From a virus (Duplodnaviria > Caudoviricetes), in the IMG/VR virus record IMGVR_UViG_3300044556_000077, positions 1 through 64,000 of that record: a stretch of DNA of 64,000 nt, one strand, 5' to 3'. This document shows positions 1 through 21,604 of the stretch, one piece after another. The translations under genes were made by a program, and so were the position numbers. The stretch's first letter is position 1, and each line of letters begins with the position of its first letter. The notes under the pieces are model-generated. The model searched no databases, had not been told where the DNA came from, and saw only the letters and a program-made list of their open reading frames with translations.

Positions 1-460
1 CATTATCAAGACTAGCCGACTTAAGCATAAAACTATACTTAGTTTTGTCATCCCTGCGCTCTTCTGCTTCAGAACGTTCGCGTTCTGAAGTTGCGAGTGC
101 GTCAATTTTTTCCGCCCTATCACCCTGCAGTGATTCAAGGTTCAAGGTATAAATAACGCTGGAAACATTGTGTCTAATCTCATTCATTGCATTATGAGAA
201 AAATATTTTTTCTCATAACAAAATGCTGGTAATACAACTTCCTTAGATGCAATTAATTCCCCCTGCTTAGTTGCCTTAGTAAGTACAATAGGATAATTTT
301 TTACAGTAGCGCCAATCTTGACAACTTCAGAGATTTTTTTAAGCTCTGAGTTAATCCGTAACACTCTATCTTTATTGCTTCTGCAATCGGAAATATTAAT
401 ATTATTCTGATTAGCAAGTTCGATTAATTCAGCTTTTTTCATTTTCATCGTAGCTTTCAT
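1..460 (-). CDS. Leftward early gene, truncated by the window edge; N-terminus resembles a Rho-N/HeH-type helical motif
   Basis: Hand translation from ATG at 460 (RBS AAGGAG upstream) is open to position 1: MKATMKMKKAELIELANQNNINISDCRSNKDRVLRINSEL...; absent from the ORF track because no stop lies in the window. Confidence 0.75.
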   Translation of the reverse strand, partial: MKATMKMKKAELIELANQNNINISDCRSNKDRVLRINSELKKISEVVKIGATVKNYPIVLTKATKQGELIASKEVVLPAFCYEKKYFSHNAMNEIRHNVSSVIYTLNLESLQGDRAEKIDALATSERERSEAEERRDDKTKYSFMLKSASLDN

Positions 461-876
461 TTTTTGTACTCCTTTACTTCCTGATTGAGTGAAATATATA
501 TATCAAGTTACAGTCATACACTTACATGTATCTGTAACTGATTAACCGCTCATATTATTTTAGACTCGCTCACAAGCTACGAATTTTCCGGCCTTAACCG
601 GTTAACCCTGATGCAATACTTTCAATTCCTGAATCATACCTTAATATGATTCAGTATGTGAATTGATTTTTCACATGCTTGTATAGTTTGTCTCACACTC
701 TCAGACTGGAAACGCATGTCTTATACCATTGGCTTGACGGACTTTTGTTTTCACTGTTTTGTGTGTTCTTGTTTCAGATAATGGACTGATGGTATTTTGC
801 CGGGCGTTGGAATGTTCTCGATTTACTTGTCAAGTGATATCTGACTTTCAATTACCATTTCCTTTATCTTGACTAC

Positions 877-905
877 AGTCTATCACAATATGAGACTATT
901 GTCAA
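877..905 (-). promoter_or_regulatory. Sigma-A-type promoter, leftward
   Basis: Minus strand TTGACA-17 nt-TAGACT with a TG extension. Confidence 0.7.
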
Positions 906-1149
906 CACTTTATTCGAAAAAATATTAGACTTATTTTTACTGATTTTCTCAGAACTTTTATCACTTTCAGAATATTTTATACACTAATAAATTATAGTTT
1001 TCAGTGATTAATTCAATATTTTGTAACATATGTCACAAAAACTCACGGTTTCAATTTTAGTTACATATGTAACAAACCGGGGTACTTAAAACGCTAAAAC
1101 GTTGAAATTTCAACGCTCCAAGTGGTAGCTAGTCTCTTCACTAACTAAC

Positions 1150-2250
1150 TCAGAAATCTCCGTAGAGAAGAAATACCCATTCAAAGCCTCACTCCACTCA
1201 CCCCACAAGTTCATCTCACCCGCAGCAAGCTACTACCCCATACTCCCCACCCACGCTCATCACGCACTCTCACAAGCCACAAATTAAACACTTAATACAC
1301 TTACAAACTATATTAGCCATCTATCCACCAAGCCACACACCACGCGCCCACGCATTCAACCAAAAGCAACCACACATCCGCTTTGCTCCATATCCATCAG
1401 GCTGCGCCACTAGCAACCTCACTTCTCGGCTCGCATCTCCCCCTGTCTGGCAGCTATTTTCTCAGCTCACACTGCTCCCCCTTCTTAGCTCTCAACCCAC
1501 TCACCCCAAACCTACCTACCCAATTCCCGTACCCCAATACTTAGTCAAAATCAAATAAAACACGCCCAAATACGCTACGAAACCCATTTCCCAACCAATC
1601 ACCCACAACACACTTATCTCCTCTCTCAGCCTCTTAGAAACGAAATAAACAACATCAACACTACACAAACGGCAAAACTCCAACAATATGCTACACAACA
1701 CACTCACACTCCCCAATAGGGGCGGGGTACTTCCACTCTCCCCAGACAAAGCCACCTTACCCATATATAACCCTACCTCTCAAAAGAGCTACATTATATA
1801 AGCACTCCACACATCATTCTATATTAGACTACCTTCTAAAGATCCCCGGCGAGGGCACTTGCGCTTCAATAATTCGATCTGGTTTAACACACACATTTAA
1901 AAGCAATCACATCCAATAGTAATCTCATTCAGCAGCTACTCAATATCGAACAACCAACTATCCAATCACCACCCATAGCCAAGGCAAACACACTCCCCTG
2001 TCAGGATACCACGCCCCACTCACAAGTTTTCTATTTCATCTCTCTCACACCACCATAACCATCCCAATTCTATACCCCAATATTCCATGTAAATCCATCT
2101 CACAGACGCTCTAACGAACGAAAACCCATTTCTCGACCAATTACCCATCCACACATTTCGATCGCTTACAGCCTTTCAGAACGTCAAATTATCAACTACA
2201 GGCATCACAATTCACATCTCAAAATTCATTTAACCATTGAAAAATGCACG
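1150..2250. other. Non-coding C/A-rich, G-poor region containing a degenerate ~130-bp direct repeat
   Basis: Visible strand skew; no credible ORF; 1519-1645 resembles 2063-2190. Confidence 0.7.
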
Positions 2251-2551
2251 TTTCTGGCAATCAAACATTCATCGCTAAAGCTCTGCAAAGATAGCAAAAA
2301 ATTGCCTATTTAATTATTGTACTAGGTATAAAAAACATACTTTTAGGATACTTCCAGTAGAAAATTATGATCAGAAAACGCCTTAAATCCCCCACTAAAA
2401 ACGCATTTTTCTTACTTGAAATATTAATATACTATAAAAATAATGAATAAAAACGCATCAAAAACGGCTAAAAATAAAGAAAAACGCCTTGTTTTTTGCC
2501 GTCCATAAGCTATTTTATTCACAAAATGACATATTTTTTTACCTCATGGTA

Positions 2552-2580
2552 TTGACAGACTTTATAATAGATTATATACT
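2552..2580 (+). promoter_or_regulatory. Sigma-A-type promoter, rightward
   Basis: TTGACA-17 nt-TATACT. Confidence 0.75.
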
Positions 2581-2723
2581 GGACATGTACTCAAAGAGAG
2601 GGATCTTCCCTACTCTGTTTACCAATTATCCAAAATAAGCCCAATATAGAAAGCGAGGTGATAAATACGAGTCCAACAAACACTTAACACCAAAGCGCAA
2701 GACATACAAGGAAAGGAAACAAC

Positions 2724-3110
2724 ATGAATATAATGAACACAGTGGCTGCAGTGCTTCAGACTCTTGGAGGAATAGCAGCATTGATTACATGTGGCATTGC
2801 AATTTATATGCTTTACAAGTTCCTGACAGATTATTCCACTCTCAGGGTAATGGCACTGAATATGTACAATGCACTCTCCCCCATCTTCAAAGGTCATCTG
2901 ATGGATTTTCAGGATGAGGAGTTCAATGAAGCCTACAAAGAAGAAGTTGCAAATGTAACTGACAGCGATGAAGACGATCAGGAGGATGAATCTGATGAAG
3001 ATTCCGATGAGGACGATGACTTCTCTGAAGAGAACACAATAGAAGAGAACCTGACTGACAGGATCACAGCAGCAAAGAAGCTGTTTGATCTCAACGTAAA
3101 CAGAAAGTAG
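2724..3110 (+). CDS. Hypothetical membrane-anchored acidic protein
   Basis: RBS AAGGA; hydrophobic N-terminal segment; D/E-rich tract. Confidence 0.75.
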   Translation: MNIMNTVAAVLQTLGGIAALITCGIAIYMLYKFLTDYSTLRVMALNMYNALSPIFKGHLMDFQDEEFNEAYKEEVANVTDSDEDDQEDESDEDSDEDDDFSEENTIEENLTDRITAAKKLFDLNVNRK

Positions 3111-3167
3111 TCCGATAATACAGTAGCCACAAACAAACATATACCAGAAGAACCAGAAAGGAAACAT

Positions 3168-4007
3168 ATGAAACTTACAAATCCAAACGAAGCGAACACA
3201 AAGAATAGCACAAAGCATGCTGCAAAGGTATGTGGACTCGCAGTAGCAGGAATGTTAGCTGTAAATGGTGCATTCTGTGTTCCGATGGCAAGTGCTTTAA
3301 CATCTAACGAGACAAGCATTAAGAACTCTGCTTCTAATGTTGCTTTTGTGAACAACCTGAAGAACATTTCAGGTAAGGATGCAAATCTGAAATACTCTCA
3401 TGGAGCATTTGTAAATGACATCAAAGCAGAGCAGACAAAGCAAATTCATCTGAAGAATGAAAGAGTAAAAGAGTACAATAGAAATATGGCAATCAGACAG
3501 GAACAGATCAGAAAAAAGAAAGAACAGGAGAAGATGAAGAAACTTTCATCTCAGAATACCCAGATCCATTCTCTCACTCCTATCTGGCTTAAACCTACCA
3601 ATGGATCATCGGCAAAGCCGTATGAGTCCTACAGAGCTATCACAGATCCATCCTCCAAGCAGTATCGTTTTCAGATGCAGCCGAATGTCAGAGAAGACTC
3701 AAGAGGATTCCTTATGGAAGATGGAACTTGGTACTGCGTAGCTATGGGAACTTACTTTGGAGATATTGGTGCAAAGTACATTATTACCCTCTCTTCAGGA
3801 AGAACAATTAATGTAGTCAAAGGAGATAACAAAGCAGATTGTGATACTGATGCAGACAATTATCTTGCACAGGATGGACATATTATTGAATTCATGATCA
3901 ACCCAAATGCATATTACATGATTGCAAATGGAGTCATCTCAAGAGGTAATCTTAATATTCTCCCTGAATTGAATGGATCTATTACTTCCATTCAGAGAGT
4001 TAACTAG
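3168..4007 (+). CDS. Secreted/membrane protein with coiled coil and C-terminal 3D/DPBB-like (cell-wall-related) domain
   Basis: Signal-like N-terminus; C-terminal YCVAMGTYFGDIGAKYIITLSSG...KGDNKAD motif. Confidence 0.55.
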   Translation: MKLTNPNEANTKNSTKHAAKVCGLAVAGMLAVNGAFCVPMASALTSNETSIKNSASNVAFVNNLKNISGKDANLKYSHGAFVNDIKAEQTKQIHLKNERVKEYNRNMAIRQEQIRKKKEQEKMKKLSSQNTQIHSLTPIWLKPTNGSSAKPYESYRAITDPSSKQYRFQMQPNVREDSRGFLMEDGTWYCVAMGTYFGDIGAKYIITLSSGRTINVVKGDNKADCDTDADNYLAQDGHIIEFMINPNAYYMIANGVISRGNLNILPELNGSITSIQRVN

Positions 4008-4345
4008 TCATACACTAGCATTTTAATTTACTCTCTCTCGGATAACTGTCCGTAGGACGAAAGTGAAATGGATGAGAATGAGAAATATGAGACTGATAAA
4101 TACGTGAGCATGCAAATGCTCTTGTATTTACTCTCTCATATGATCAATTTAGAAAGCATGAAAATATTTTCACTCACGTATGTTACAAGCTAATTTTTTT
4201 AAAACTAGACGAAAATAATGCTTGACATAGCGTAAGCACTAGAATTCCAATTGGTTTACCTACGTACTCTCCAGACTCGGAGCAAAACGAAGTTTTGCGG
4301 AGAGTTAGACCTCATACTCTATAAAATTCATTAATATATTATACG

Positions 4346-4447
4346 GCAACTTTATGACATATAATTGTATCATAAAGTTGCTCGATAGTTAAAAACAAAG
4401 AACACAAATGTGTGCATAAAGTAGCTGATTCAAAAAAGCAACTTTTA
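4346..4447. repeat. Iteron-like GCAACTTTATG repeats upstream of the putative Rep gene
   Basis: Copies at 4346-4356 (+), 4371-4381 (-), 4415-4425 (-, variant), 4438-4447 (+, variant). Confidence 0.55.
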
Positions 4448-4501
4448 AATGTGTAAATTTCAACGATTAAAAGGATTTGTGATAATTATTATCACAAAAT
4501 A

Positions 4502-5518
4502 TTGTACAGAAAGAAATACAAAATTATGATGAAGCATGAACCTACTGAAATTTCAACGAAAGCAGCCGATACTGAGACAAAGAAAAACATTTTCACAAAA
4601 TATGACAGACAAAATTGTTTGAGAAAAGGCAATGTGGTTATTCACGAGCGTTTTATTGAAGATCCGTATTTTGAAGACCCATATACATTCTTTGTCGGAG
4701 TTTATTTGGAGAACAAAACAGCAAAGCCATGTACATTTTTATCTGTGAATGATCTTGCTTTCCTGCTTTATAATGCTAGTCCGAACCAGAGACAGAAGAA
4801 AAATGTTAGAGATGCAGTTACAAAGATGATTAATGACAACATGATTATTTGCGAAAGAAATTATGGAAATGGAAACTATCTTGTAAATATGATTAATTGG
4901 CGCGCAAAGAAATGGGAAGGCTATGAGAAAAAAGACGATCATGTAGTGGTAGAAGCTAATCCTTGGGATGACTGGGGAGAACAGATGGAAGATGATAATA
5001 ATGAGAGCAATGAAAAAAAGCCGGGTAATGGAAAGTTCACAATTATTGACGGTGAATATCCGGGATACTATGAAGCAATTCCAATGGATCTGTTTATTGA
5101 ATGTATGGAGAGTAACTCAAGAATTACAGCAAAAGCTACTAGATTGAAGTTTTTAACATTTATGGAAAAAATCACTCACCGTTGGTCGAGACAGAATGAA
5201 GATTACCAGAAGTATTTTGGAAAAGTAGCTGTATTTTCTCAGAATGAAGCTTCAGAAACTCTTGGCGTTAGCGAGACATCAATTAAGAATTATATTAGTT
5301 GGCTTGAAGAGAACAAGATTATTATTGTTGCAAGAGCTACAGTAACATATAATAAGAGAAAATATGACGATGATAAGCCATCGATTGAGAGAGCTTCAAA
5401 TGTTTATGCTTGGCATAGAAACATTGACTTTGTGAATGACTACATTCATCAGCCGAGACTCAAAGGTCAGAATTATGTCCTCTCCGGTCAGGGTAAAATC
5501 AAACTGACAGCTAAATAG
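4502..5518 (+). CDS. Winged-helix DNA-binding protein, putative replication initiator (true start perhaps ATG 4526)
   Basis: HTH-like FSQNEASETLGVSETSIKNYISWLEENKII...SNVY; preceded by repeats. Confidence 0.5.
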   Translation: MYRKKYKIMMKHEPTEISTKAADTETKKNIFTKYDRQNCLRKGNVVIHERFIEDPYFEDPYTFFVGVYLENKTAKPCTFLSVNDLAFLLYNASPNQRQKKNVRDAVTKMINDNMIICERNYGNGNYLVNMINWRAKKWEGYEKKDDHVVVEANPWDDWGEQMEDDNNESNEKKPGNGKFTIIDGEYPGYYEAIPMDLFIECMESNSRITAKATRLKFLTFMEKITHRWSRQNEDYQKYFGKVAVFSQNEASETLGVSETSIKNYISWLEENKIIIVARATVTYNKRKYDDDKPSIERASNVYAWHRNIDFVNDYIHQPRLKGQNYVLSGQGKIKLTAK

Positions 5519-5543
5519 AACCATTTAATATGTCCAATATACA

Positions 5544-5571
5544 TTGACATTTTTAGTGTTATGAGTATAAT
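5544..5571 (+). promoter_or_regulatory. Sigma-A-type promoter
   Basis: TTGACA-16 nt-TATAAT upstream of 5629. Confidence 0.65.
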
Positions 5572-5628
5572 AAACATAGATGATAATAACAGGAAAATAC
5601 TTATGATTATATTAGGAAGGAAGTTTGA

Positions 5629-6258
5629 ATGGATGAAACATTCTCTGTTGATGAATTCGTAAATAACGAAGCATATCAGGAGGATATGATTAATAATATG
5701 AAGCTTCTGCGTGAGTTGCTTGATCTGCCACACATAAAGGGGTGTAAATTTGCAACTGCTGAGTTGATTGCATCATATTATGATGTGTCTCTGAATCAGG
5801 TTAAGATGCTCCGCAGAAAGCATAAAGAAGCATTTGATATTACTGGTGTGAGATACATGTCTGCAAAGAAGATACTTTCCTTTTTTGCTAAATCAAATGA
5901 TTATGATCAATATCGTGATCTGGATTTGACCCAATACTATATACGCCCTCTTCTGATTGAGAATACCAAGAATGGAGTTATACTTGACAGAACGGCGTTA
6001 AATAGTACAAGAAATACTGTGTATAGTTACAAGTCAGTAATTCTAATGGGTGCATTAATTCACGGGTCTGAAATTGCAATCAACATGAAGTGTATTCTTC
6101 CGAATGCCAAGGAGATCTATGAGACTGATAAACAGATTAAGACTCTCTCTGCTGAGATTGCTATTTACGGAGATGATGAAGAGAAAGCAGAAAGGATACA
6201 GGAGCTTAGACATGGACTGTATGAAGAATACGGTTTGTACATTGATGATTTTAGATGA
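5629..6258 (+). CDS. Phage DNA-binding/antirepressor-like protein, divergent paralog of the next gene
   Basis: FATAELIASYYDVS and VILMGALIHGSEIA match FATINQVADYYEVD and AILLVGMLLRDSKVA of 6311-7285. Confidence 0.55.
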   Translation: MDETFSVDEFVNNEAYQEDMINNMKLLRELLDLPHIKGCKFATAELIASYYDVSLNQVKMLRRKHKEAFDITGVRYMSAKKILSFFAKSNDYDQYRDLDLTQYYIRPLLIENTKNGVILDRTALNSTRNTVYSYKSVILMGALIHGSEIAINMKCILPNAKEIYETDKQIKTLSAEIAIYGDDEEKAERIQELRHGLYEEYGLYIDDFR

Positions 6259-12866: not shown

Positions 12867-12896
12867 AAGAGTAGGTTTCGTTCTCTACTCTTTTTT
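12867..12896 (+). terminator. Intrinsic terminator after iscS
   Basis: AAGAGTAG/CTACTCTT stem plus T-tract. Confidence 0.6.
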
Positions 12897-12942
12897 CTTT
12901 ACTTTTGTTTCATTTTTGTACCTCCTAAAAATATAATGAAAC

Positions 12943-13543
12943 GAGAACAAGGATGCTAGAAATGAGAGCATTGTTAACTCAGTGAAGAAGCAATGTTATG
13001 CTGCTGAGATGCATTGTAATCCCAGACTGATACTTACGGATACGTTTGTTGAGGATCTGTGCAGCTATGGTGACATAGTTGCAGAAGGTAGAATTACCAA
13101 CGGTTGGATGCAGTGCTAAACTTCTGGCGATATAAAGGTACGACAAATTGACACCATGTGCAATAGACGCTCTGTGAGAAGAACCTCAAACGACATGAAG
13201 CTGGATACTTAGTGAAACGTGAGGAATTCCAAATAAGCATGGTAATGCATATAAGCGTAGCAGAAATGCCGTGAATAAAGTTCAAGAGTCGGTACGAGTA
13301 GCCTAATGCATGGCATCAAGGTTGAAGCATAGACTTGAAATCTATTGCTGATGATATGTGAATGACAGGTGAAAGTTACAGATGCCAATTCTGTATAAGA
13401 TTTGCCGTTTAACGGTGGGTATAATAGCTGCAGCTGACGGGTTGTATGCTCACATTATATTCCTTATTGACTGAATATATAAGAAGGATGTTTGAGTAAG
13501 ATGAAGGTCTAACAGTGCTTTGATTTCTGGTATCCTTGTTCTT
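12943..13543 (+). ncRNA. Large structured ncRNA (~600 nt), ROOL-like
   Basis: No ORF; 5' GAGAACAAGGATGCTAGAAAT pairs with 3' ATTTCTGGTATCCTTGTTCTT, then AGCATTGTTA pairs with TAACAGTGCT; internal hairpins; size and tRNA-adjacent phage context match ROOL; TATAAT at 12932-12937 just upstream. Confidence 0.7.
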
Positions 13544-13546
13544 TGT

Positions 13547-13621
13547 AGGTTTGTAGTTCAATTGGCAGAATGCCAGTTGTGAGAGCAACGGTAGATGCAA
13601 GTTCAAATCTTGCCGAACCTA
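13547..13621 (+). ncRNA. tRNA-like element lacking a canonical anticodon loop
   Basis: Acceptor AGGTTTG/CGAACCT, D arm GTTC-AATTGGCA-GAAT, T arm GCAAG-TTCAAAT-CTTGC; the anticodon arm is an extended stem capped by GAGA. Confidence 0.7.
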
Positions 13622-13688
13622 TTTTATGCGGGTTTCACTCCTACTATGAGTAAACACGCAAATACATTAAGAAAGGAATGAAACCTAT

Positions 13689-15430: not shown

Positions 15431-16898
15431 AGACAATAATATTGATATTGGTGATTAAATGTGTTTAAAGATGCTCATAGTACATGCCTAAATTGAGAAG
15501 GCTTTTTAGGGTTTTTCCTCATATTTTAGACGATGCCCAAGCGGAGAGAAGGTGAGAATGATGCTGAAAAGCTTCAAGACAGAAATTGATCCAACACTAG
15601 AGCAAAAAATCAAGATCAACAAAACTATTGGCACATGCAGATATATCTACAATTTCTACATTGCCCATAATAAAGCTTTGCATGATCAAGGCGAAGCATT
15701 TATGAGTGGCAAATCATTTAGTGTCTGGCTTAACAATGAGTATATACCTAACCATTCAGACAAAGCATGGATTAAAGAAGCTTATTCTAAAGCTGTCAAG
15801 AAATCCATTGAAAATGGGTGTACTGCTTTTACAAGATTTTTTAAACATCAGAGTGGTTTTCCAAAATTCAAGAAGAAGGGAAAATCTGATGTAAAGATGT
15901 ATTTTGTGAAGAATAACCCCAAAGATTGCATCTGCAAAAGACACTGTATCAAGATTCCTTCTCTTGGATGGGTAAAGCTAAAAGAAAAAGGCTATATACC
16001 AACAACCAAGGATGGATTCACTATTAAGAGTGGTACGGTGTCTATGAAGGCAGACAGATATTATGTTTCAGCTCTTGTAGAGCTGCCTGATCCACATCCA
16101 TCAAAATGCAGTGGCGAGGGTATTGGAATAGACTTAGGGCTAAAGGATTTTGCTATTGTTTCAAATGGCAAGACTTATAAAAATATCAATAAGTCAGCAA
16201 GAATTAAAAAATTAGAAAAGAAACTGCGTAGGGAACAAAGATGTCTCTCACGCAAGTATGAAAATTTAAAGAAAGGAGAGTCTACTCGAAAGAATATACA
16301 GAAGCAAAAGCTGATGGTGCAGAAGCTTTATCATAGGATAGATAATATCCGTACTGATTACATTAACAAGACAATCACTGAGATAGTAAAAACCAAGCCG
16401 TCTTATATAACGATTGAGGATTTAAATGTATCAGGTATGATGAATAACAGGCATCTCTCAAAAGCTATTGCATCACAAAAGTTTTATGAGTTCAGAATTA
16501 AGCTTAAAAATAAATGTGATGAAAATGGCATTGAATTAAGGGTTGTGGACAGATGGTATCCATCATCAAAACTGTGTCACTGTTGTGGAGCTATTAAGAA
16601 AGATTTAAAACTTTCAGACAGGGTTTACAGATGTGCCTGTGGATACATAGCAGACAGAGACTATAATGCAAGTCTTAATTTAAGAGACGCAAAAACTTAC
16701 AAAATTGCATAAGTAAGCAAGTGTAAGTGTGTACCAATGGCTAGTTGGGAATTAACGACTGTGGAGTGTACAAGAACTTGTGAGTAGTAGGTCACTTATG
16801 ACTACAAAAGCATACACTGTGAAGCAGTAAGTGGTGTTTGCGAAAACCCACAACATCTCAATGTGCTTGAGTATATTTGAACATATTTTGAGTAGCAG
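15431..16898 (+). mobile_element. Non-autonomous TnpB-only IS (IS607/IS200-IS605 group); left end approximate
   Basis: tnpB followed by ~190 nt omegaRNA-like right end ending ...TTTTGAGTAGCAG; no transposase ORF. Confidence 0.7.
15552..16712 (+). CDS. tnpB: RNA-guided endonuclease TnpB
   Basis: RuvC GIDLG, IEDL, DRDYNA; zinc finger CHCCG..CACG; N-terminal HTH KSFKTEIDPT. Confidence 0.93.
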   Translation: MRMMLKSFKTEIDPTLEQKIKINKTIGTCRYIYNFYIAHNKALHDQGEAFMSGKSFSVWLNNEYIPNHSDKAWIKEAYSKAVKKSIENGCTAFTRFFKHQSGFPKFKKKGKSDVKMYFVKNNPKDCICKRHCIKIPSLGWVKLKEKGYIPTTKDGFTIKSGTVSMKADRYYVSALVELPDPHPSKCSGEGIGIDLGLKDFAIVSNGKTYKNINKSARIKKLEKKLRREQRCLSRKYENLKKGESTRKNIQKQKLMVQKLYHRIDNIRTDYINKTITEIVKTKPSYITIEDLNVSGMMNNRHLSKAIASQKFYEFRIKLKNKCDENGIELRVVDRWYPSSKLCHCCGAIKKDLKLSDRVYRCACGYIADRDYNASLNLRDAKTYKIA

Positions 16899-19497: not shown

Positions 19498-21604
19498 ATG
19501 AGCGATTACGAAAAGTATAGAAACAATATTGATTTCATCAAAAGATACTCTAAGGCAATCAACGCATCTTCTGGAAGTGAAGTAGATGCTAATGCTAATG
19601 TAGAGAATAAGAATATTACAACATGCATGGGTGAGATTCCGAAGAGACAGATCATCGGAACTAATAGACTGCTTATGCATGATAAGATTACAGAAATGTA
19701 CGGGGAAGAGCTTGCTGATGAGTATATCAGGCAGCTTGAATCCCATGAGATATATAAACATGATGAAACGTCCATTATGCCTTATTGCGTCAGTATTACT
19801 ATGTATCCTTTTCTCTTTGAAGGACTGAAGAATATTGGTGGTATTTCCACAGCACCAACTAACCTTCAGGCTTTCTTGGGAGCTTTTATTAATCTCGTGT
19901 TTGCTATTGCAAGTCAGTTTGCCGGGGCGGTAGCAACTCCTGAGTTCTTTATGTATATGGATTATTTTATCCGCAAAGAATATGGAGATGATTATTATCT
20001 GCGCTCAGATGAGATTGTATCTCTCGGTAAACATCCAAGAACAATTGATAAAGTAATTACTGACGGATTTGAGCAGGTTGTATATTCAATGAATCAGCCA
20101 GCAGCTGCAAGAAATTTCCAAAGCGTAAACTAAAAATGCGCCTATATTAAGTAATTTATATAGAAAACTCCTTTAATTTCTGGAAACTCTTTCTGAGAAG
20201 AAAGACGATCAGAAGCGAAGCTCTTGATTACAAGAGAACGTTCAACGACTATTGCGAAAGCAAGTACACTATAAGCGTTTGATAGTGGAAATGGGGAGCA
20301 TCCTTTGTAGGATGGTGATATAGTCTGCTCTTCATGGTAACATGAAGCAGTTCATAAGAGAACGCATGTAATGTAGCGAATTACATGGAACATTAGGGTT
20401 TTGGAATGTGGCTTACTTTGATCATCCATACTTTAGCGGTATGTTTGATGGTTTTGTATTCCCAGATGGAAGTGAGCCTAAGTGGGAAAGCTTAAACTGG
20501 CTTCAGAAGAAGTTTATGAAGTGGTTTAACAAGGAAAGACTTAAGACAATTCTTACCTTCCCTGTTGAGACTATGAATCTCCTGAATGATGGGTCTGAAT
20601 ATGTTGACAAAGAATATGAAGATTTCTCCGCTGAGATGTATTCAGAGGGACATTCATTTTTTACATATACAAGTGATTCCGTAGATAGTCTTGCAAGTTG
20701 TTGCAGACTGAAGAATGAGCTTCAGGACAATACTTTCTCTTATACTCTTGGAGCTGGCGGTGTTGCTACAGGTTCTAAGGGAGTTCTTACAATTAATATT
20801 AACAGACTTGTTCAGAATGCAACAAGAAATGGTGTAAATATTTCAGATGCTGTTGCAGAACAGGTTGAGAAATGTCATAAATATCTGCTTGCTTATAATG
20901 CAATTATTACAGATTACTTTAATGCAAGACTTCTGCCTATTTATGACGCAGGATATATTTCTCTTGCAAAGCAGTATTTGACTATTGGTATTAATGGATT
21001 TGTTGAAGGTGCAGAATTCCTTGGAATTAGCATTACTCCGAATGACAGATATTTTGAGTATGGTGAATCTATTCTCAAGCCTATCTATGAACTTAACAAG
21101 GCTGCAAGAACAAAAGATATTATGTTTAACACAGAGTTTGTTCCTGCTGAGAATCTTGGTGTAAAGAATGCCAAGTGGGATAAGGAAGATGGCTATTTTG
21201 TTCCTAGAGATTGCTACAATAGTTACTTCTATCTTGTAGAAGATCCATCAACTAATATTATTGATAAGTTCATTCTTCACGGAAGAAAGCTTACTAAATA
21301 TCTTGATGGCGGTTCTGCTTACCATTGTAATCTTGATGAGCATCTTTCCAAAGAGCAGTATCTAAAACTTGGCAAAGTAGCTATTAAGACTGGATGCACG
21401 TACTGGACATACAATGTCCCAAATACGATTTGTAATGATTGCGGACATATTAGTAAGCATAGACTTGAGAAGTGTCCAAAGTGTGGAAGTGAAAATCTTG
21501 ATTATGCAACTCGTGTAATTGGCTACCTGAAAAGAGTTTCTAAGTTCTCAGCACCTAGAATCAAAGAAGAACATAAGAGGTATTATGGCAGATACAAAGC
21601 GTAG
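19498..21604 (+). CDS. nrdD: Anaerobic ribonucleotide reductase, spliced: join(19498..20126,20398..21604), 611 aa
   Basis: YKHD, PYC; splicing restores ARNFQSV|FWNVAYFD; LASCCRL, VPAE, CNDCG..CPKCG, glycyl-radical RVIGYL. Confidence 0.93.
20127..20397 (+). ncRNA. Group I intron (271 nt, no ORF) in nrdD
   Basis: P1 GCGT/GCGC with U.G; TTCAACGACTA and GATATAGTCT core; terminal G; frame restored. Confidence 0.9.

Follow-up and report, generated by a model that had tools for sequence, protein, structure and literature searches.

ROOL RNAs make up a family (RF03087) described by Weinberg et al. 2017, with a mean length of 581 nt (PMC5737381). The members tested so far form hollow RNA-only cages, octameric for env-120 (PMC12286853), octameric for E. 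faecalis and hexameric for L. salivarius (PMC12990946); the hexamer, as against the E. faecalis and env-120 octamers, has been attributed to an ultrashort apical stem (PMC12990946). Cage structures and retention at nanomolar concentration have been reported (PMC12286853; reviewed in PMC12990946), and the structure authors suggest that ROOL encapsulates tRNAs, ribosomal particles or other cargo (PMC12286853, PMC12990946). A conserved kissing interaction, noted in earlier covariation analysis, is seen by cryo-EM to bridge neighbouring chains (PMC12286853), and an L2-L13' contact has been described (PMC12990946). GOLLD (RF02032) is likewise a large phage or prophage RNA found near tRNAs and forming RNA-only cages (PMC12286853), but it is unrelated in sequence and fold.

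The DNA analysed here (the window) comprises the first 64,000 nt of an IMG/VR virus contig that is 132,182 bp long and, by estimate, 72% complete. We are all but certain that window positions 12943-13543 hold a complete gene for a ROOL RNA, belonging to an uncultivated phage of Clostridia-like hosts. An Rfam 15 scan of the whole window matched RF03087 to 12954-13529 at 252.1 bits (E 2.8e-56), about 2.5 times the curated gathering score of 99.1 bits. The match covered model positions 1-574 of 574, was complete rather than truncated, and occurred on the plus strand only; searching the whole 132-kb record with RF03087 gave the identical ROOL result. GOLLD had no match at its gathering threshold anywhere in the window. 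By a hand count on the NC annotation line of the alignment, ∼132 of ∼159 model pairs are canonical and ∼27 are non-canonical. The RNA measures 576 nt as modelled, or 601 nt with its full terminal helix, near the family mean. All of the family's conserved blocks are present, as read from the Infernal match line and the invariant alignment columns: GUGAAGA, GGAUAC, CAAUAGACG, AGUAGCC, UGAAUGA..GGUGAAAGUU, GAAUA and GAGUA. A sequence-only reading had called this stretch ROOL-like from size and context alone and named Infernal with the Rfam ROOL model as the check; the full-length match bears that call out. The parts of the locus are as follows.

12867-12892, plus strand: terminator-like hairpin and T-run after a class-V aminotransferase gene (9-bp stem, then TTTTTTCTTT; -11 kcal/mol, z -3.3).
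12932-12937, plus strand: TATAAT, a candidate -10 box by sequence, 5 nt before 12943.
12943-13543, plus strand: ROOL RNA, bounded by the two outer ends of terminal helix P1, with 12954-13529 as the core that the Rfam model covers.
12943-12975, plus strand: 5' arm of P1, from sequence, fold and duplex energy (columns 12-37/744-769 of alignment A1).
12978-13008, plus strand: P2 hairpin CUCAG...CUGAG with the conserved GUGAAGA internal loop (Infernal alignment; covarying helices 3 and 4).
12995-12998, plus strand: loop L2, GUUA, pairing with UGAC at 13363-13366 in a conserved pseudoknot or kissing contact (covariation).
13038-13043, plus strand: GGAUAC loop motif, L3a-type; GAUA is invariant in 24/24 sequences.
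13058-13085, plus strand: hairpin CTGTGCAGCTATG/CATAGTTGCAG with a GUGA tetraloop, the model's P3b-type, conserved in the family (sequence and Infernal alignment).
13161-13169, plus strand: conserved junction CAAUAGACG (Infernal and multiple alignment).
13170-13178, plus strand: minimal apical hairpin CUC-UGU-GAG, model positions 220-232 (Infernal alignment).
13291-13303, plus strand: conserved block GGUACGAGUAGCC, in which AGUAGC is invariant in the alignment.
13304-13357, plus strand: variable linker, the model's unstructured loop, aligned with low posterior probability and unconserved in the multiple alignment.
13327-13348, plus strand: hairpin GCATAGA/TCTATTGC within the variable linker (sequence).
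13359-13377, plus strand: conserved block UGAAUGAnnGGUGAAAGUU (Infernal and multiple alignment), the source of the IMG/VR search pattern.
13426-13450, plus strand: P18-type hairpin with a GACG loop at 13436-13439 (Infernal alignment and refold).
13499-13510, plus strand: last hairpin, AGAU-GAAG-GUCU (Infernal alignment; covarying helices 16 and 17).
13511-13543, plus strand: 3' arm of P1, from sequence, fold, covariation and duplex energy.
13546-13622, plus strand: tRNA-shaped element lacking a normal anticodon (46 bits on the Rfam tRNA model; ARAGORN 'tRNA-???', gaga).

With the rest of its family the window copy shares a full-length match, size, conserved blocks, junction architecture, a variable linker and the L2:UGAY contact, as well as a phage context and a tRNA-type 3' neighbour. 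Its P1 is longer and more stable than that of the 24 compared ROOLs (-54 kcal/mol versus -18 to -49). It further differs from a typical ROOL in its apical hairpin of 3 bp, in the GACG variant of loop L18, in lying outside a tRNA island, in having an anticodon-less tRNA look-alike as its 3' neighbour, and probably in having its own promoter rather than depending on an upstream tRNA. The experimentally characterised ROOL of the L. salivarius UCC118 megaplasmid pMP118 (L036; NC_007930.1 178263-178805, minus strand) belongs to the same RF03087 family but scores 130.4 bits against 252.1 for the window copy, which is the closer of the two to the family consensus. The pMP118 ROOL lies on a megaplasmid, not in a phage, and is without the small hairpin after CAAUA..C; that missing hairpin seems to be the 'ultrashort' apical stem tied to the hexamer. 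The same RNA is reportedly, from work by Cousin et al. in 2017, an abundant lncRNA.

The contig carries a YonO-like RNA polymerase, a head protease, a group I intron and tRNAs, and within the window there are two ordinary tRNAs besides the tRNA-shaped element. The nearest cultured relatives of the polymerase are in Enterocloster bolteae phages (∼55% amino acid identity), followed by Clostridium phage c-st. ROOL is accessory in this phage lineage, since a search of the complete genome of Enterocloster phage CB473P3, the one relative checked, found no ROOL. Upstream of the RNA is a cysteine-desulfurase-like gene, and downstream are a 62-aa ORF, a beta-CASP nuclease and TnpB.

Such neighbours could be taken for a dedicated four-gene RNA system of cysteine desulfurase, ROOL, tRNA mimic and beta-CASP ribonuclease, all four being co-oriented and beta-CASP enzymes being cutters of RNA (Pfam PF10996, PF07521). 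We consider this very unlikely. By tblastn, no homologue of the cysteine desulfurase, the 62-aa ORF, beta-CASP or TnpB was found within the available flanks of 31 other loci (29 with ROOL), many of them short. Ten neighbouring proteins were compared with the other ROOL loci in this way, and matches were limited to the ClpP-like protease and an exonuclease, both in L030 (IMGVR_UViG_3300032038_000052, 1-6239); the four-gene system was set aside on this result. L030 comes from a distant relative of the window's phage and is the sole syntenic one among the fetched loci. Its order is a YonO-like polymerase fragment, ROOL (2233-2821), tRNA-Pro (2925-2997), small ORFs, a ClpP-like protease with 52% amino acid identity to that of the window, and the exonuclease; it thus keeps ROOL without cysteine desulfurase, beta-CASP or TnpB genes. 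As they lack homologues at the other loci, these neighbours are not conserved ROOL partners, and the desulfurase and beta-CASP genes look like lineage-specific insertions, one of them beside TnpB. Non-conserved nuclease and desulfurase neighbours narrow where the function of ROOL should be sought.

TnpB and beta-CASP lie in the interval that separates ROOL from the ClpP-like protease gene; in L030 that interval has small ORFs alone. The TnpB gene, in the region 15552-16830, is of the IS605 OrfB type (Pfam OrfB_IS605, Cas12f1-like TNB and HTH_OrfB_IS605). A RAGATH-18 RNA match at 16758-16830 (69.9 bits), 46 nt after the TnpB gene, is presumably the guide or right-end RNA of the TnpB element.

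In primary sequence the window ROOL is very divergent. A blastn search with positions 12900-13650 matched none of 50,697 phage records, a scan of IMG/VR with window-specific 23-mers found no close relative, and pairwise blastn against 24 other viral ROOLs found only blocks of 19-55 nt in common. Divergence of this order would suit a large structured RNA of a new class, similar to ROOL in size and context only, a hedge that the sequence-only reading had attached to its own call. We judge a new class extremely improbable, and indeed already refuted by the RF03087 match: the ROOL covariance model is aligned over its whole length, composition bias contributes just 11.6 of the 252 bits, the invariant blocks are all in place, and the helices covary in register with those of other ROOLs. 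The hedge is therefore unsupported, and the window's ROOL is a new but ordinary member of an already catalogued family.

Relatives for the covariation analysis came from scanning IMG/VR for the conserved 19-mer TGAATGANNGGTGAAAGTT, which yielded 31 viral loci, 29 of them with a ROOL above the gathering score. Two viral contigs, L015 and L018, contained the 19-mer and no ROOL at that score, which shows that this pattern by itself does not identify a ROOL; both may have matched by chance, or may carry a degenerate or incomplete copy. Because blastn gave short blocks only, the covariation work used MAFFT, and the shortness of those blocks means that the comparison spans real divergence. Alignment A1 is a plain MAFFT alignment, made on sequence only, of 24 full-length copies (the window and 23 viral ROOLs) with 15-nt flanks.

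RNAalifold found 86 consensus pairs in A1, and 80 of these show one or more double-sided compensatory changes, strong covariation that supports the fold. The consensus includes 21 terminal-helix pairs, which extend past the paired region of the Rfam model. The counts were made on this consensus with the outer P2 helix added (91 pairs). Standard pairs filled 86.2% of cells, versus 60.8 ± 0.7% with 3' partners shuffled (0/500 shuffles as high); with partners slid by 1-3 columns the figure was 38-51%, a control over which the structure is favoured by having been derived from A1 itself, although the margin is large and A1 was fitted to no structure. Compensatory changes were seen in 585 cells versus 208 in shuffles, and the covariation score was 0.689 versus 0.239 shuffled. 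The window row forms 74 of the 91 pairs in the unfitted MAFFT alignment. Several of its misses, such as helix 13154-13159/13238-13243, are one-base register errors of MAFFT that are resolved in the Infernal alignment.

The ends of the RNA are held together by P1, in which an outer helix of 21 bp (12943-12963 with 13523-13543) is followed, after a G12964/G13522 mismatch, by an inner helix of 11 bp (12965-12975 with 13511-13521), 32 bp in total. Five of the pairs are G.U: 12943/13543, 12955/13531, 12957/13529, 12966/13520 and 12971/13515. Read from the other strand, all five would be C/A mismatches, so it is the plus-strand RNA that is complementary here. End to end, the P1 duplex has an energy of -54.4 kcal/mol, compared with -24.2 ± 3.7 when the 3' arm was shuffled 500 times (the best of these reached -39.1), and none of the other 24 copies compared has a P1 as stable. 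The minimum free energy fold of 12943-13543 (-185.1 kcal/mol, z -5.37, 0/20 shuffles as good) reproduces the P1 closure, and in A1 P1 covaries in 21/21 consensus pairs (helices 1 and 2).

The sequence-only reading had described end pairing of about 30 bp in two helices with several G.U pairs, and had taken it as RNA-level structure rather than a DNA inverted repeat. The pairing agrees with that description, and the G.U pairs and the strand-specific match point the same way. Its two named hairpins are both real (13058-13085 and 13327-13348). Its description of the interior as ORF-free was nearly right: the only ORFs that overlap 12943-13543 begin with GTG or TTG and are 45-65 aa long, none of them credible. 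A DNA-level element (mobile-element terminal inverted repeats or a recombination site) in place of an RNA has next to no chance, for although there is a 32-bp terminal inverted repeat with a TnpB/IS605-family gene 2 kb downstream, the five stem G.U pairs are mismatched at the DNA level, the ROOL match is confined to one strand, covariation of the interior helices across 24 sequences passes through G.U intermediates, there is no transposase between the repeats, and IS200/IS605-family elements are not known to have long terminal inverted repeats.

Inside the ROOL RNA, published bridges B1-B7 and the published P-numbering were mapped onto the Rfam model from text, and two elements, the L2:UGAY contact and the apical hairpin, were placed with reasonable confidence. 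In a partner scan of the P2 loop, the purine at column 68 covaried with the pyrimidine of UGAAUGAY at column 575. Across the 24 sequences these columns hold 8 G-C, 12 A-U and 3 G.U pairs and one mismatch, and the three neighbouring pairs are almost invariant. The window copy forms G12995-C13366, U12996-A13365, U12997.G13364 and A12998-U13363, and so keeps this conserved pseudoknot or kissing contact, the one such contact examined. From the published descriptions, L2:UGAY would be the L2-L13' bridge of the solved cages.

The apical hairpin at 13170-13178 has 3 bp, where most relatives have one pair more. It appears to be the element that differs in length between hexameric and octameric ROOLs, and would correspond to the published P7/P10. 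The hairpin here is minimal; if the ultrashort stem is this hairpin, the stoichiometry of the window ROOL is unpredictable.

The P18-type hairpin fits RF03087 poorly, with non-canonical marks, but it can be paired anew by means of G.U pairs and a single bulged U. Its GACG loop variant is common to about eight relatives. Published L18 is a symmetric kissing loop, whereas GACG is not self-complementary as written. Within the P18-type helix, a 10-nt palindrome AGCTGCAGCT, overlapping CAGCTG, is found at window positions 13426-13436; it may be an alternative self-pairing or dimer contact, or a coincidence.

At the 5' side, the terminator-like hairpin at 12867-12892 separates the upstream aminotransferase gene from the ROOL unit. 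The TATAAT that the sequence-only reading had noticed 5 nt upstream is there, at 12932-12937. A promoter at this position is plausible, and the hexamer would set the transcription start at ∼12943-12945, the first bases of P1. The hexamer itself is not enriched in the AT-rich window (98 found versus 86.6 ± 9.7 expected, a chance rate), and the candidate -35, TTCATT at 12909-12914, is weak (3/6). The -35 fell under the cut-off of the promoter scan, which for that reason did not report the TATAAT. Since TATAAT is common, the -35 weak and the site within a hairpin, the 5' end of ROOL could instead come from read-through and processing.

That hairpin, of 12 bp, lies directly 5' of ROOL at window positions 12900-12946 (GUUUCAUU.../...AAUGAAAC region; -8.4 kcal/mol, z -3.3); its loop contains CCUCCU and its 3' arm the TATAAT. 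Instead of being promoter DNA, it could belong to a longer primary transcript.

At the 3' side, the tRNA-shaped element begins 3 nt past P1; ARAGORN assigns it no amino acid and reads 'gaga' at the anticodon. Similar abutment is found elsewhere: 7 of 29 other ROOLs (L012, L009, L023, L011, L008, L006 and L005) are followed, 3-24 nt past their modelled 3' end, by a tRNA, and five have one 12-26 nt ahead of the 5' end. Because this arrangement recurs, ROOL ends are likely produced by tRNA-processing enzymes. In the window RNase P would likely cut at ∼13545/13546, releasing the 3' end of the RNA. The 132-kb record has four tRNA-like genes, scattered, and ROOL is not in a tRNA island.

We can propose the following course for the ROOL RNA. 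Transcription probably starts just downstream of a sigma-70-like -10 box and would run through the ∼600-nt RNA and the abutting tRNA-shaped element. Judging from the layout here and in relatives, RNase P would cleave where that element begins, so that the ROOL 3' end would lie 2-3 nt past the 32-bp helix. The model match and covariation show that the folded monomer keeps the junction architecture, the conserved loops and the L2:UGAY contact. By homology with solved members, six or eight copies would then assemble, protein-free, into a hollow, closed cage that encloses the variable linker (13304-13357).

As to what such a cage might do, our best guess, speculative and less likely than not, follows the direction suggested by the structure authors: an abundant RNA compartment or decoy during infection, holding or sequestering translation-related cargo (such as tRNAs, ribosomal particles or their enzymes). 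A more elaborate proposal strikes us as unlikely: that the anticodon-less tRNA decoy makes the ROOL 3' end and stays as a second product, that the minimal apical hairpin and long P1 give a different cage stoichiometry or gating, and that ROOL plus decoy form a unit directed against host defences that target tRNA or translation. Existing knowledge of ROOL is unchanged by the window copy; what it adds is one clearly bounded ROOL gene whose helix ends are placed exactly and which comes with candidates for a promoter and a processing signal.

Elsewhere in the window, a group I intron (RF00028, 89.9 bits) was noted at 20117-20347, between ORFs 19498-20133 and 20408-21604; it probably splits one gene.
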